Positions 9,873 to 15,223 of a stretch of 64,000 bases of DNA are shown here, piece by piece. Numbering within the stretch: position 1 is the first letter of the stretch; every line of letters starts with the position of its first letter. The stretch is taken from contig OY968769.1 of NCBI GenBank assembly GCA_963695345.1, positions 320,001 to 384,000 on the forward strand. The letters are read 5' to 3'. This DNA is from an uncultured Methanomassiliicoccales archaeon. Its GTDB lineage: Archaea > Thermoplasmatota > Thermoplasmata > Methanomassiliicoccales > UBA472. The translations under genes and the position numbers were made by a program. The notes under the pieces were generated by a model. That model saw only the letters and a program-made list of their open reading frames with translations. It had not been told where the DNA came from and made no database searches.

Positions 9873-10694
9873 TCAGATAGTGAGTGCTTTTTGCTTTTCG
9901 AACTTGCTATCCTTCTTTCCTACCCAGTAGTAGTTCGGTGTTTGGAACTTGGGCATGATCTTTTTTATCTTTTTATGTAAGGTTGCATAGTTGCCTTTGA
10001 ACTTGCCTTCATTCCAGACGATCTTCAGATTTGATGTGAACAGGCTATTCCTGACCCCTGCCCTGGATGTCTGCCAATCCTGGCATCCTGAGATCAACAA
10101 TATCGATGCCTTCACGTCCGCTTCTTTGATGTTTGAGGTTTCAGCCTGGATCCGATCATAGAATTCTTTGTTCTGTTCATAGACACCTTTCACCATCGAG
10201 TCAGGCATCGCCTTGGTTTGGAATTGAGGGGATGGCATACCTCCCTTTATTGAACGAACGATGTCGCCTTTGGTTACAGTCCCACTATGACAGCTGTCAG
10301 AAATGACAACGACCCGCACACCCTCGGCAAAGTTGGCATAACGGACCAGAAGTTCATCATCCATTATCTCCCCATCATAGAGACACCAGGTCTCGTCCTG
10401 CTCATCATCCTCATCCCCATTGACATCTGGCAACCAACTCCCATGGCCCGAGTAATAGACCGCGAAGATGTCACCGCTTTCCAGTTGGTTGGCGGCTATG
10501 GTCATCTCGTCTATCACCGATTGACGGGTGGCAGCCTCCGTAAGAAGGATCTTCACTTCGAACCCCTTAGATAAAGCAATATCGGCCATATCGTCGGCGT
10601 CCGATTCGCATGGAGTCAAGTATCCATCCCAGTCATTGTACTTGCCTGGATCTACTCTGTTCAGCCCGATTATCAGCGCTATTCCCTTAGGCAT
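9873..10694 (-). CDS. Caspase-family (peptidase C14, metacaspase/orthocaspase-like) protease
   Basis: ALIIGLN, YYSGHGS (catalytic His), DEDDEQDETWC, ISDSCHSG (catalytic Cys), ISGCQDWQTS, QTPN. Confidence 0.92.
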   Translation of the reverse strand: MPKGIALIIGLNRVDPGKYNDWDGYLTPCESDADDMADIALSKGFEVKILLTEAATRQSVIDEMTIAANQLESGDIFAVYYSGHGSWLPDVNGDEDDEQDETWCLYDGEIMDDELLVRYANFAEGVRVVVISDSCHSGTVTKGDIVRSIKGGMPSPQFQTKAMPDSMVKGVYEQNKEFYDRIQAETSNIKEADVKASILLISGCQDWQTSRAGVRNSLFTSNLKIVWNEGKFKGNYATLHKKIKKIMPKFQTPNYYWVGKKDSKFEKQKALTI

Positions 10695-10993
10695 CTTATT
10701 CCCCCACTATTTTCGACCTGAGGTCATTATGACCGCGATAATTACATTCGCTATGTATGAATAAAATATTTTCCATGATTTGATTCAGTGGCGTATAGGA
10801 TTGAATGAGTTGAAAAACCTGGAATTGAACCTGAAGATGGAAGGTTATTGTAATAGGTTATTCGAATCCTTGTTGGATTCGTTCTAGAGGAGGGGCAAAG
10901 GCAGTGGGACGTTCATTGTCGAACACATCTGAAAACTCGCTTTAGGGTGACTTCATTAGGCTTTTTTCATAGCCTTTTCACTTAGTATCTCAT

Positions 10994-13520
10994 TCATTTT
11001 CCCCTGAAATCCAAGATCACCCCATCCTTCGCTCTCATGAAAAGGACAGGTGTGGCGAAGTCCCTTTTGTCTAGGCCTTCCTTTATGGAAATATAGTTCC
11101 TTGTCAATTGCACCGCCTCATCCACCGGTTTTGCCAGGGCAAGACTGCGATAGAATTTGTCAGCGAAGAGCTTGGATGTGGTATCCTTGACAGAATACTG
11201 CATGGCGATGATCGCTGGTATCCCTCTTTGCACAAGACGCGGGGCCATGCCCGTAAACACCTGACTGGATGATACTGTGGCCCCTTCGCAAGAATTGAGG
11301 ACCACCAGGCCCAGTCCTTCTTTTCCCAGGAATAGGTTGGCAAAGCGTTGGTCATCCAACAATATTGCGCGTTCGTGTTCATCCATCAAGGCGATCTGAC
11401 CCTTGTCGTCCTTGAATATGCCGTGTCCGATGAAGTGAAAGATGTTGTAGTGTTTCTCACTCAATTTTTGATCGATCTCGTCAATCGTTGCCTTGGTAAG
11501 CACATCGATCTCGATCTGGCCCGCATAGACATGACATTTCAGGGCCTCTTTGATCATTTTCTCCTCGGCGAGCGAATCGAGATGGGCCAGATCTTTCGGG
11601 CTGGATATGACCAAAAGAATCTTCAGAGGAAGGCTGGCAGGTTTGAGGTCCTTTCTTCTCAGGGGAATATCGATGTACCTCGAAAGGGTGGTCCTGGAGT
11701 CGTTGGCCAGGAATGTGTTTGTGCTGTCATCATACAGAAATTCCCAGGGAATGGCGGCTAGTTCCGGCTTTTCGAAGATTAGACGCAGGCGGACACCACA
11801 TCCGTTCTGGTCCGCTTCAACCTTCGTCGCCGCAAAGTGTCGTGAGAGTTTTACACCAAAGAGCGCGTTGAAAAGAGTACTTCCAACGTTCTTCAAAAGA
11901 TCCTCATTCGTCTTGTCAGCCAATATTAGCTGTAGGTTGGAATCAAAGACATCGCGATCCAGGCTCAATTCGCCATGGAGTTCCCCTTGATCCGACGATG
12001 CCAGAATGTCCCCGTCCTCTTGGACCCTAATCGATAGATCGCAATAATCGGTGTGGGTTGGCAGGGACCTGATGGAGGCCCTCTCAGATGTGCCTGGTAT
12101 GATCGTAGGGATTGGGTCTTCGTGCGTCGATTTCTCAGTTGGGCTGGGTGCAACTATTGTGGTAACCACAGCATCGGCTTTTTTCAGATCGTCATGACCG
12201 ATTTCAGGCAATTTTGATTTGTTGAAGCCACCTTCTGATGTGATGGGATTGATCGAAGGGTCAATGGTTTTTTGGTGATCCTTCCTGATTCGGGCCATTA
12301 TCTTGTTTCGAGAACCTGGAACGACAAAAAGAACTGCAACTCCGATCGTCACCAAAACGACCATCGCTACCAGCAAAATTTGAGCGATATCACCTCCTGA
12401 TGATATTCCCACTTCAATAACTGATGTCAGTGGACCTACTCCAGCCGAGCTCGCGGCTCTGACCTGATAGTAATATTTCTGACCAACGATAATGTTCTTG
12501 TCAACGTAATTTGTCCCAGAGACATTTGTAATCAATGAGAGTGAATCGGATGATGTCCCTCTGTACACTAAATAGGCGGTAATATTGCCACCGCCGGTGC
12601 TACTTGGTGCCGCCCAACTGAGGGTGACTTGAGAAGCGCCAGGAGTGGCGACAAGCCCTGTGGGAGCTCCAGGCATTAATGGAATGATCTCGCCCATCGT
12701 CAGTCCATTCCAGATTCCTCCGGGTCCAGGGAAATTCGATTGGCCATATGCATGGCCCATTAGCCCTGAAGAGGTATCAGATATCCAATCCATGCCAACA
12801 ATGGTGGGTGCAATGGATCCCAAGAAGGATAACGACACCAGGGAGGTGCATCGAAAGAAAGCATAGTCCTCGATGGTCATGACACTATCAGGGATGATCA
12901 CGGAGGTCAGGGAGGTGCAGGATTGGAAAGCGGAGACTCCCGATGGACGTAACGCTGTTGGGAATTGTCACGGAGGTCAGGGAGGTGCAGTAGTAGAACA
13001 CAGAATATCCGATGGAGGTGATGTTATTGGGAATTGTCACGGAGGTCAGGGAGGTGCATGCGGCGAATGCAGAGCTCCCGATGGACGTAACGCTGTTGGG
13101 AATTGTCACGGATGTTAAGGAGGGGCAGTAATTGAATGCGTAGTCCTTGATGGTCATGACACTATCGGGGATGATCACGGAGGTCAGTAGGTCGCAACCA
13201 TAGAACGAATAGCTCCCGATGGACATGACACTATTGGGAATTGTAACGGAGGTCAGGGAGGTGCGGTTACGGAAAGCACCATTATCGATAACCACGACCG
13301 TATACCCACCCAACGTTGAAGGAACAGTGATCGCTCCACCAGTGCCACCGTATCCTGTGATCGTAGCGACTGAGGGACTTCCACTTACTAGTGTAATGAG
13401 TATTCACCTTCCTGGTATGCTTCCGCGATACTTGGGATGACAATGGAGAGAGCACCCAGTAGCAAAACTAGCATGATGATGGCGGATATCCTATCAATCG
13501 CTGCCTTTTTTTCCGTTTAT
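10994..13520 (-). CDS. Single-pass membrane protein: signal peptide, BspA LRR, FN3, TM, cytoplasmic CHAT protease domain (frameshifts near 13395 and 12935)
   Basis: Signal-like IIMLVLLLGALSIVIPSIAEA at ~13480-13420; LRRs in ORF 12888-13313; FN3 PGAPTGLVATPG...YYYQVRA; TM IAQILLVAMVVLVTIGVAVLFVV; CHAT motifs LAAIPWEFL, ILLVISSP, FHFIGHG, VVLNSCEG, IIAMQYSV, FADKFY. The exact start (13474 or ~13520) is uncertain. Confidence 0.85.
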
Positions 13521-13848
13521 GATCTCCCCCTTATTCCTCTCAATTCGTCAGATTGAGTGCTTAATAAATTTAGACTATCTGACAATATAAGGATTTGTCA
13601 TCTTCCTTATTAGGCCCCGCTGATTGTCCTCATGATCATTCTCAGTCAGCAGGTCAAGAATTGGAACTAAGAAATTCAAGCCAAATGTAAGAAAACTTCA
13701 AAAAGATATATATGAGCGCAAATGCTAGTAATTTTATATATTGTTTGGGATAGCTGTTCTCCGATATGAAAACGGCCAGAAAGGGATGATCTGGATAAGA
13801 TACCAATAGTAAAATTCTTCAGGGAATAGAGAGGAGTTGAGTAGGGGC

Positions 13849-15223
13849 ATGTGTTCGAAAGAAGGGCAATGGACAATAATGGTGTACATGGCAGGGGACA
13901 ACAATCTGGATGAGGCGGGTCTCCTCGATCTCGAGGAAATGAAGAAAGTAGGTTCATCAGATCAGGTAGAAATCGTTGTCCAGTTTGATTGCAGAGGGAA
14001 GGACAGTACGACATCCAGATACCACATAAGAAATGATACCGACCTGGACGATGATTTGATCCAGGAATTGGGACAAACTAACACGGGTGATCCTGAAGTG
14101 TTAGAAGAGTTCATAAGATGGGGTGTAGAAACATATCCATCCTCTCATTACATGCTTGTCCTATGGAACCACGGCAACGGATGGGATGATGATGTTGTAT
14201 TTCGGAGTCAAAAAATATCATCAGAAGAACCTGTCTATAGGTCAATCGTATCGAAGGTAGGGGAGACCCCAATATCGAAAGTAGAAGGGTTGTCAATATC
14301 AAAGGTAAAGGAAGCCCCATCGTTGTTTGGCAAGATGGATCTGGATATACGACGTGATCTGATAAAAAGTCGTTTCCATCGCAGCCTTTTCATTACCACG
14401 GTTGACCAGGCAGTCAAAACAAGAGCGATCCTCATAGATGATAATGCCAAGGACTTCCTGGATAACATCGAGATGAAGAACGTTCTCGAATCTGCTTGTG
14501 CGAGGATCGGGAAGAAGATCGATATCCTGGGAATGGATGCTTGCCTGATGAGCATGGTCGAAGTTGGATATCAGCTGAAAGATAGCGTTTCATTGACCGT
14601 TGGTTCACAGGAAGTGGAACCGGGAGCAGGGTGGCCTTACCAGCAGATCCTGCAGAGGCTTTCGGACAATCCATCAATGACGCCGGAGGAGCTGTCAAGC
14701 ACTATCGTTACCGAATACATCACCTCATTTGAAAATACTAAAAAGGATGTGACACAATCGGTCTTTGACCTGTCGAAGTCAGACGATCTCATCTCCGCTC
14801 TGGATCGATTTGTGGCTGCGGTGAATGACCATGTAAAAGATCCGGCAACGGCCAAGGATACGAAATCCGCTATTGTGAACGGTCGGGCAAGAGCTCAATC
14901 CTATGCTAGGTCTGATTATATCGATCTCTTTAATTTCTGTGAATTGGTAGGAAAGAATATCGATTCCGATGAGATGAAAGAGGCTTGTCAGTCGGTTATG
15001 GATGATCATTAGGCCAAGCGGATTCGTCGCCAGTTCTGGTTACTATGGAAAAGATGTCAAAGGATCGAACGGAGTGTCCATATATTTCCCCATGAAACAG
15101 ATGTCCGAGAAGGTATCCGAGCTGTATTCCGGACTAGATTTCGCCCAGATGTCGACCTGGATGAGCTTCATTATGGACTATCTCAGCGATTGGGAGAATG
15201 CCAAGGAATTGATACCAGCGTGA
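13849..15223 (+). CDS. Clostripain-family (peptidase C11) cysteine protease without signal peptide (frameshift near 15010)
   Basis: WTIMVYMAGDNNL, DLEEMKKVGS, NTGDPEVL, LVLWNHGNGW (His), GMDACLMSMVEV (Cys), GSQEVEPGAGWPY; the C-terminal GVSIYFP...W motif lies in ORF 15002-15223. Confidence 0.9.

Follow-up and report, generated by a model that had tools for sequence, protein, structure and literature searches.

The window analysed here comprises positions 320001–384000 (64,000 nucleotides) of contig OY968769.1, a single-contig genome of 2.56 Mb that belongs to an uncultured Methanomassiliicoccales archaeon and was rated 85% complete; "the window" refers to this whole stretch, and all positions are counted from its first letter unless otherwise stated. 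Three adjacent genes between positions 9873 and 15223 encode clan CD proteases of three families, i.e., a C14 caspase-like protease, a CHAT protease joined to a membrane helix and a predicted extracellular part, and a C11 clostripain-like protease. With moderate confidence, we propose that the CHAT and C14 genes form a sensor-triggered two-tier protease module, in which a membrane receptor carrying the CHAT domain would serve as initiator and the neighbouring C14 protease as executioner. An initial annotation, made from the sequence alone, had described the three genes as adjacent and each as bearing an intact His/Cys dyad, and coordinates, Pfam matches, and alignments agree with it. The features of the locus are as follows.

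9873..10694, minus strand: 273-aa caspase-like protease (C14, GSU0716 type), stand-alone (PF00656, E-value 8.3e-22)
10695..10993, minus strand: spacer of 299 nt between the CHAT stop and the C14 start, both genes on the same strand (open reading frame (ORF) map)
10994..12901, minus strand: open frame of 635 aa encoding FN3, transmembrane (TM) helix, and CHAT (ORF map, Pfam)
10997..12049, minus strand: conserved CHAT module, 351 aa, predicted to be cytoplasmic (homology, AlphaFold2 (AF2) model)
12050..12313, minus strand: Pro/Thr/Ser/Glu-rich linker of ~90 aa from TM helix to CHAT, open in frame (translation)
12314..12388, minus strand: single TM helix (residues ~172–196), followed by PGSRNKIMARIRKDHQK on its C-terminal side (Kyte-Doolittle scan)
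12413..12667, minus strand: FN3 domain, predicted extracellular, residues 79–163 (PF00041, E-value 3.9e-8)
12888..13397, minus strand: BspA-type LRR_5 repeats in 69-nt units, in a frame other than that of FN3-TM-CHAT (PF13306, E-value 1.1e-41)
13388..13474, minus strand: signal-peptide-like start (M-LVLLLGALSIVIPSIAEA-) in a third frame (three-frame translation)
13475..13836, no strand: intergenic region, rich in AT (37% GC), from which the receptor-CHAT and C11 genes diverge
13837..15223, plus strand: stand-alone C11 gene lacking a signal peptide, split into 391 aa and 73 aa (PF03415, E-value 1.7e-53)

Receptor-CHAT protein

The CHAT domain spans residues 339–601 of the 635-aa frame (PF12770, E-value 1e-30; 107.6 bits vs. 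a cut-off of 24), and its dyad FIGHG/LNSCEG (H209 and C254 of the domain) is invariant in 28 of 28 homologue rows. Identities of the conserved module to proteins from cyanobacteria, Methanothrix, and Anaerolineae were 55–73% (120 listed of 170 matches), and no relative of it was found on viral contigs. The AF2 model of the module (pLDDT 82.7) is structurally akin to SAVED-CHAT: the best Foldseek match was the SAVED-CHAT filament PDB 8TL0 (E-value 1.1e-11), which was also the single PDB match of the module profile (A3; E-value 2e-9), and the PADLOC SAVED_CHAT model matched at an E-value of 8.4e-13. Craspase TPR-CHAT, DdvA, and separase followed in Foldseek (E-values 1e-9 to 1e-7, TMq 0.5–0.64), and caspase-9 was matched too; the NCBIfam model caspase_w_EACC1 gave no match for CHAT.

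Partners joined to this CHAT clade comprise EAD1/8/9/10, VMAP-C, AAA-like NTPases, Roc-COR-LRR, TPR, and HEAT, and in two Methanothrix-type proteins (P0006 and P0031) the module is combined with a TM helix and CarboxypepD_reg domains, so that swaps of the ectodomain on the same CHAT domain, a prospect raised in the initial annotation, do occur. An Anaerolineae metagenome-assembled genome (MAG) (L025) carries two tandem CHAT genes, one of them 57% identical to the module in the window, behind genes for a SIR2-nSTAND1-HEAT protein and a FecR/CARDB protein, which is a typical conflict-system context for the clade.

The TM helix reached a Kyte-Doolittle value (KD19) of up to 3.2 and has R/K-rich sequence C-terminal to it, in keeping with the positive-inside rule. 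Because this single hydrophobic helix is followed by PGSRNKIMARIRKDHQK, the LRR-FN3 part should lie outside and CHAT inside the cell, as initially annotated, in a type-I membrane protein. The previously claimed single-pass LRR-FN3-CHAT protein holds up for FN3, TM helix, and CHAT, which share one 635-aa frame, whereas the LRR_5 repeats (ORF 12888–13313, minus strand, 141 aa; repeat families D1/D2) and the signal-peptide-like start, for which no Pfam match was obtained, lie in other frames. CHAT as a separate gene behind a surface-protein gene was considered and rejected, since the frame is open through TM helix, linker, and CHAT, with no Met at the usual start of the module. Many surface proteins native to the genus are 41–53% identical to the LRR-FN3-TM part, which has 57 matches in its own genome; abundant surface proteins of the host itself are paralogues of the LRR_5-FN3 ectodomain.

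C14 and C11 proteases

The C14 gene follows the CHAT gene on the same strand, as had been annotated, and the 299-nt spacer between them contains no minus-strand ORF of at least 50 aa. Its product scored 78.4 bits against PF00656 (cut-off 21.4), lacks a hydrophobic segment in the Kyte-Doolittle scan, and carries a dyad (His84 in YSGHG, Cys135 in SDSCHSG) that is invariant in 16 of 16 rows of the family alignment. It belongs to a family of stand-alone caspases of ~278 aa (7492 matches among 8000 candidates), whose profile matches PDB 3BIJ (GSU0716) over the full length (E-value 2.3e-132). Identity to family members is 50–71% over 99–100% of the length, and 50–57% across bacterial phyla and Methanothrix. 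The family also occurs on plasmids and on 4 viral contigs; HMM and phmmer scans of these 4 viral loci found neither CHAT nor C11. The NCBIfam model NF047832 (caspase_w_EACC1) reached 31.2 bits, below its cut-off of 140. PDB 3BIJ was deposited as "uncharacterized protein GSU0716" of Geobacter sulfurreducens, and literature searches returned no description of a function or partner of the family. We propose that the C14 protease could be an executioner zymogen activated by cleavage.

The divergently transcribed C11 gene scored 182.9 bits against PF03415 (cut-off 25.8), and its WNHGNGW and MDACL motifs align with the matching stretches of PDB 6n9j. Its first frame (13837–15012, plus strand, 391 aa) continues at 15002–15223 in a shifted frame with the last ~70 aa. 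The protein shows no hydrophobic segment, at the N-terminus (maximum KD19 0.95) or elsewhere, which bears out the earlier remark that this clostripain has no signal peptide. Homologues of ~428 aa are 45–50% identical (2214 matches in the family). Within the order, C11 domains were found in 14 of 201 genomes; those of the 13 other genomes reside mostly in very large ORFs (1039–6516 aa in 11 genomes) at 24–61% identity, and large C11-containing surface proteins are native to the taxonomic family (13 of 46 genomes).

Recurrence of CHAT-C14 pairs

Exactly two CHAT and two C14 genes are present in this genome, and they form two adjacent pairs. In the second pair (113.1–115.3 kb of the contig), C14 is 70% and the soluble CHAT only 27% identical to the window copies, and the gene order is reversed, with C14 upstream of CHAT, a gap of 41 nt, and a host-like GC content of 57–59%. 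Within this pair (113100–115350 of the contig), C14 has a frame break near its N-terminus, and the last ~100 aa of the CHAT ORF seem to be read in the wrong frame, where another indel is possible. A Nitrososphaera-like MAG (G203) encodes a sole GSU0716-type C14 (278 aa) at 210 nt from, and divergent to, a 1024-aa protein whose N-terminus is CHAT-like with an intact dyad (HFSGHG/LDACY; E-value 1.2e-15 against the A3 profile); a TM helix, Big/HYR/PKD domains, and another TM helix at the C-terminus follow. At this locus (C15:1386–5506, L177), a gene with a guanylate-cyclase domain lies 2 kb beyond the caspase. All archaeal C14 copies seen (3/3) adjoin a CHAT or CHAT-like gene.

Among metagenome contigs, L054 (259–10470) holds C14 and a soluble CHAT 178 nt apart, with a signal-less C11 within 7.5 kb and additionally an S8 protease and a PAS-GAF-PAS sensor protein, i.e., four protease families within 10.5 kb. 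By eye, the L054 CHAT protein's N-terminal region resembles a receiver domain (no Pfam match). CHAT lies 2–5 kb from C14 in L090/L095 and L110/L119. A quick C14 tree (31 rows, chosen by hand from >7000 homologues) placed the C14 proteins of G203 and L090 as sisters (SH-aLRT 96), and the neighbours of both share a minimal CHAT-like domain. For C11, a further co-location was found in L037, where an MBL-C11 protein is encoded two genes upstream of a CHAT-EAD7 protein. A functional link between CHAT and C14 is supported by this recurrence. The protease cascade postulated in the initial annotation is partly supported, namely in the link between CHAT and C14; for C11, two other co-locations (L054 and L037) hint weakly at membership, and activation by ligand-driven clustering is something that we purely infer. 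As to the co-occurrence of all three genes, the CHAT-C14 pair recurs and L054 holds all three families, yet the pattern is a minority one among bacterial C14 loci, and CHAT and C14 were not found in the other genomes of the order.

Several observations weigh against the two-tier module. CHAT was located within 8 kb in 5 of 84 C14-centred loci (442 kb of flank), amounting to ~3 independent cases, and C11 in one of the 84; conversely, loci centred on the CHAT clade of the window held C14 in 0/18 and C11 in 1/18. The nearest neighbours of C14 (99 ORFs from 68 of 80 loci) are heterogeneous, with another C14 in 6 and a papain C1 protease in 4 by Pfam, and CHAT in none at E-values ≤ 1e-4 (the CHAT gene of L054 is in this set, under the cut-off). 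Ascertainment of the G203 case is biased, since another CHAT gene had led to it, and the CHAT-like domain there falls under the Pfam cut-off (19.9 vs. 24 bits). Within the order, the CHAT module was found in this genome only (1/201), and C14 in this genome and, as one weak 31% match, in another (2/201). The CHAT clade is usually wired to EAD, STAND, or VMAP partners, none of which is present on the island described below. No homologue among the 120 listed of 170 matches covers more than 66% of the 635-aa ORF; the LRR-FN3-TM-CHAT fusion is therefore so far known from this locus alone and may have arisen recently as a chimera. Furthermore, the true start of the receptor is uncertain because the signal-peptide-like start has no charged n-region from its only ATG, and the assembly is poor. 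Complex prediction for the CHAT module (A3) with C14 (A1) returned a score of 0.00 and a mark of 0.32 and provides no evidence either way.

One alternative is that three independently mobile protease genes gathered in a variable or defence-type island without cross-talk, with CHAT acting as a lone membrane sensor-effector and C14 and C11 activating themselves, an explanation that we regard as possible, if rather doubtful. Each protease comes from a big conserved family whose members mostly stand alone, as the 7492 C14 and 2214 C11 matches and the usual lack of a CHAT gene beside C14 illustrate; the C14 family travels on plasmids and viral contigs, C11 is transcribed divergently, and an unrelated AbiE-like gene pair occupies the same island. 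Speaking against it, the CHAT-C14 pair occurs twice in a 2.56-Mb genome that has no further copy of either gene, and again in G203 and in L054, the latter with all three families within 7.5 kb.

The commonest nearest neighbours of C14 are other cysteine proteases. By clustering, a papain C1 gene lies directly beside C14 in 10 of 80 metagenome loci (L050, L083, L085, L107, and others). On plasmids, C14 often stands by itself, as on p68 of Bacillus toyonensis, or it adjoins or is fused to another protein, for instance a C1 peptidase on pSymA of S. meliloti (L128), where the peptidase gene directly precedes that of a 638-aa caspase-family protein. In each of two archaeal phyla sampled, C14 was found in 1 of 401 genomes.

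Frame breaks and assembly quality

The indels flagged in the initial annotation appear in the DNA as three single-base breaks, so that a single LRR-FN3-CHAT protein and a full-length C11 need three frame corrections in total. Break 1 is an extra base at ~12936 between the last LRR units. At break 2, somewhere from 13388 to 13404, one base is missing between the signal-peptide-like start and the LRR repeats, and break 3, in the C11 gene, is again one extra base (15005). For comparison, Logan contigs of a relative were used, not reads of the strain itself. A 4347-bp contig from a sediment metagenome, 92.6% identical to positions 13766–15300, does not have the extra base at 15005, and two metagenome contigs lack one base at 12936, with the caveat that LRR repeats attract foreign contigs. 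One sediment-metagenome run (possibly DNA) contains a small share of the sequence words of the window, and no RNA run was listed.

To gauge how often frames switch, uninterrupted ORFs (≥250 aa) from a 400-kb portion of a complete genome of the same genus (G007) served as queries. Among the 155 orthologues, 30 are frame-switched in the present assembly; over the 190 kb of coding sequence that could be aligned, 44 switches were counted (0.23 per kb). The reverse comparison, in which ORFs of this genome were searched against 400 kb of G007, gave 12 "switches" in 154 ORFs; it cannot serve as a clean control, since in at least 9 of the 10 printed cases this genome is the broken one. Within the window, even the leucyl-tRNA synthetase (LeuRS) gene is split (667–2601 and 2547–3440, frames of 644 aa and 297 aa), whereas LeuRS frames of 907–926 aa are open in 3 of 3 relatives tested. 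The LeuRS tail is fused in frame to the next gene. For the 4.7 kb of coding sequence at the protease locus, ~1.1 switches are expected and 3 were seen (Poisson P ~0.1), which is compatible with assembly noise. Since the assembly frame-switches 30 of 155 conserved ORFs and splits the essential LeuRS gene, the three breaks are probably assembly errors and the genes intact. Frequent indels probably also explain the 85% completeness of this one-contig genome. Frame errors occur about once in every 4 kb of coding sequence, and what looks like a pseudogene in this assembly is not to be trusted.

It is on the breaks that a second alternative turns, namely that the locus is a decaying remnant or accidental chimera with real frameshifts and pseudogenes, in which a native surface gene and a foreign CHAT were fused non-functionally. 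The break density of ~3 times the genome-wide rate would fit, as would a fusion architecture not met elsewhere, the absence of CHAT and C14 from the 200 other genomes of the order (apart from the weak C14 match), and the frame break in the second C14 copy. We nevertheless consider it quite unlikely, in view of the probable consensus errors in conserved genes, LeuRS included, that are intact in relatives, the retention of three dyads and of family-invariant residues, the 635-aa frame that is open including ~90 linker codons, and the intact C11 frame in the 92.6%-identical relative. Very unlikely, finally, is a housekeeping or developmental role in HetF-like cell division, in envelope biology, or in the turnover of LRR-FN3 surface proteins, for which HetF as the top NCBIfam match of CHAT (E-value 5.5e-24, far under its cut-off), the 57 native paralogues of the ectodomain, and the native C11 surface proteins could be cited, but such a role should be conserved, while CHAT and C14 lie in a low-GC island and were not found in the other 200 genomes, and all three catalytic domains are expected in the cytoplasm, apart from the surface proteins.

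Island and genomic context

The protease genes are horizontally acquired, as follows from their low GC content, the stop of synteny at a tRNA-Gly gene, and the near-absence of CHAT and C14 from the order, and they are part of an island of ~13–15 kb beside this tRNA gene. Its features are listed below.

3893..3966, plus strand: tRNA-Gly(GCC), left border of the strain-specific island (ARAGORN)
3969..19230, no strand: low-GC strain-specific island (composition and loss of synteny); right border uncertain, 17.3–19.2 kb
7846..9614, plus strand: two overlapping genes for proteins of 313 aa (HTH/HVO_2833_C) and 276 aa (DUF6036 nucleotidyltransferase + HTH) (Pfam)
15502..16512, minus strand: tandem Lrp/AsnC-type HTH regulator, 336 aa (Pfam, NCBIfam)

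GC content is ~45–48% over 6–18 kb compared to 55–62% in the surroundings. DNA synteny with four of four genomes of the same genus (86–88% identity) stops at 3967/3968, i.e., at the 3' end of tRNA-Gly; from there to 19227, matches to these genomes are restricted to the level of LRR repeats and to short pieces at 7148–7274 and 17272–17794. The stretch that matches from 19227 onward is located 340 kb from the LeuRS/tRNA-Gly site in G007. When direct repeats were searched for copies of the tRNA-Gly end that could mark an attachment site, only LRR and coiled-coil repeat families were retrieved, and no integrase was found among the window ORFs scanned.

The two genes at 7846–9614, which overlap by 4 nt, gave a weak PADLOC match to AbiEii (E-value 4.7e-4) and Csa3/CasR-type HTH matches; they are probably an AbiE-like or toxin-antitoxin-like module separate from the proteases. 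The tandem Lrp/AsnC-type protein is possibly a local regulator. Very large surface-protein genes flank the island (4523–6748, 19239–22634, and 23463–26732). The first encodes an LRR_5 and coiled-coil protein of 741 aa, and the other two encode proteins of 1131 and 1089 aa with at least 8 FN3 repeats each, the former of which additionally has a thioredoxin-like and an SfLAP-like membrane domain.

Proposed mechanism and implications

In the proposed two-tier module, the first tier would be the type-I membrane protein, with its LRR_5-FN3 ectodomain and a mobile, highly conserved CHAT module as cytoplasmic tail, and the second tier the adjoining stand-alone GSU0716-type C14 caspase. Binding or clustering at the surface would gather the CHAT tails and thereby turn them on by induced proximity, comparable to SAVED-CHAT filaments. 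Active CHAT would then cut the C14 zymogen, the likeliest site being the variable stretch that follows its catalytic Cys, and C14 would in turn cleave many proteins, which could lead to growth arrest or death in the manner of abortive infection. That clustering is the trigger, which protease cleaves the other, and how the response ends are drawn here by analogy. The cytoplasmic C11 protease may be a second executioner or a regulator.

An extension of this scheme, which we consider unlikely, is that GSU0716-type caspases are general executioner zymogens for interchangeable initiators (CHAT in archaea; papain C1, a second C14, or S8 in bacteria), that at least two archaeal lineages possess a transmembrane receptor-CHAT protein, and that the ectodomain perhaps is a virus-receptor decoy. 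The last suggestion arises because the paralogues of the ectodomain are the abundant adhesins on the cell's own surface; if true, the decoy may report virus attachment before genome entry. The ectodomains of the archaeal receptor-CHAT proteins would be LRR-FN3 here and Ig/HYR/PKD in the Nitrososphaera-like MAG, and, if the scheme is true, they would represent an outside-in, death-receptor-like archaeal pathway. 

As for the two-tier module itself, known prokaryotic caspase-type immunity senses intracellular signals (cyclic nucleotides, target RNA, phage proteins). A CHAT initiator coupled to an LRR-FN3 or Ig-like sensor outside the cell, and accompanied by a conserved small caspase, would carry the initiator-executioner scheme over to the cell surface and to archaea, in which caspase homologues are rare. 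The large, structurally solved, and functionless GSU0716 family (PDB 3BIJ) would thereby also gain a testable role as protease-activated executioner.

Comparison with known systems

The initial statement that no characterised system with such a layout is known is not supported, as the logic of SAVED-CHAT and PCaspase is known and TM receptors with caspase-fold proteases have been predicted earlier. In the type III-B CRISPR-CBASS locus of Haliangium ochraceum, SAVED-CHAT (PDB 8TL0) oligomerises and then cleaves and activates the C14 protease PCaspase, which cuts many proteins in an abortive response (preprint 10.1101/2023.06.23.546230, available part). As described there, a sensor is likewise fused to CHAT and a C14 gene lies in the same cluster (here at 299 nt, and at 41 nt in the second pair). 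Unlike the cytoplasmic, cA3-binding SAVED domain, the sensor in the window is an extracellular LRR-FN3 part connected via a TM helix; no SAVED domain was detected, with fn3, LRR_5, and CHAT as the only Pfam matches. The island also differs from the SAVED-CHAT locus, as far as the latter is covered by the available part: neither cyclase or CRISPR genes nor genes for a sigma factor, inhibitor, or kinase were seen in it. No cas or cyclase genes were found among the 19 window ORFs scanned, all of them in the first 30 kb, and PADLOC reported only Csa3/CasR at the level of the HTH. The C14 protein of the window is a 273-aa GSU0716-type protease that matches the PADLOC model "caspase" only at an E-value of 1.8e-6.

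EAD/VMAP/EACC1 conflict systems with a constant caspase domain, many swapped partners, and frequent TM helices, including versions with TM helices and extracellular PBP domains, were described by Kaur et al. 2020 (PMC7159879, available part). Members of the same CHAT clade (54–62% identity) are fused to EAD1, EAD8, EAD9, and EAD10 + VMAP-C, whereas the locus has no EACC1, EAD, vWA-MoxR, or STAND partner; according to the ORF map, it also has no upstream gene for a small TM protein of the kind that marks the EACC1-caspase membrane system. An LRR_5-FN3 ectodomain and an archaeal host are not among the descriptions in the available part of PMC7159879. For cyanobacterial metacaspase-CHASE2 membrane proteins, a receptor domain outside and a caspase-fold protease inside have likewise been predicted (PMC3501461), and plasmid pNPUN01 of Nostoc punctiforme encodes an annotated CHASE2 protein with an N-terminal CHAT. 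They differ from the window receptor in their sensor fold, several TM helices, the opposite domain order, and their bacterial origin, and no GSU0716-type C14 is listed beside the CHAT-CHASE2 gene of pNPUN01.

With GSU0716 (PDB 3BIJ), the window C14 shares membership in the family over its full length. The CHAT fold is shared with Craspase (gRAMP-TPR-CHAT/Csx29), DdvA, and separase, as judged by Foldseek; Craspase, however, is switched on by RNA-guided binding and not at a membrane. DdvA, according to the available part of its description, spans the membrane, carries a CHAT domain, and controls a defence island, yet its CHAT is periplasmic with an incomplete active site, whereas that of the window is predicted to be cytoplasmic and has the full dyad. 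No gasdermin family was found among the Pfam matches of the 19 ORFs scanned (ORFs of at least 50 aa). A paper on an LRR-FN3-TM-CHAT protein or on a GSU0716-type caspase paired with CHAT was not found either, within a partial coverage of the literature.

Animal death receptors and Toll-like receptors combine an extracellular sensor (with LRR), a single TM helix, and induced proximity of an initiator clan CD protease, followed by an executioner caspase, as in caspase-8/-9 activation. The resemblance of the window system to these receptors is an analogy only: the signalling parts are not homologous, and the protease would be fused directly to the receptor, with no death-fold adaptors. The two-protease logic and the predicted TM coupling of caspase-fold proteases to extracellular receptor domains are already known, whereas the LRR_5-FN3 type-I receptor form of the CHAT clade, its archaeal host, and the repeated pairing of GSU0716-type caspases with CHAT in archaea appear to be new.

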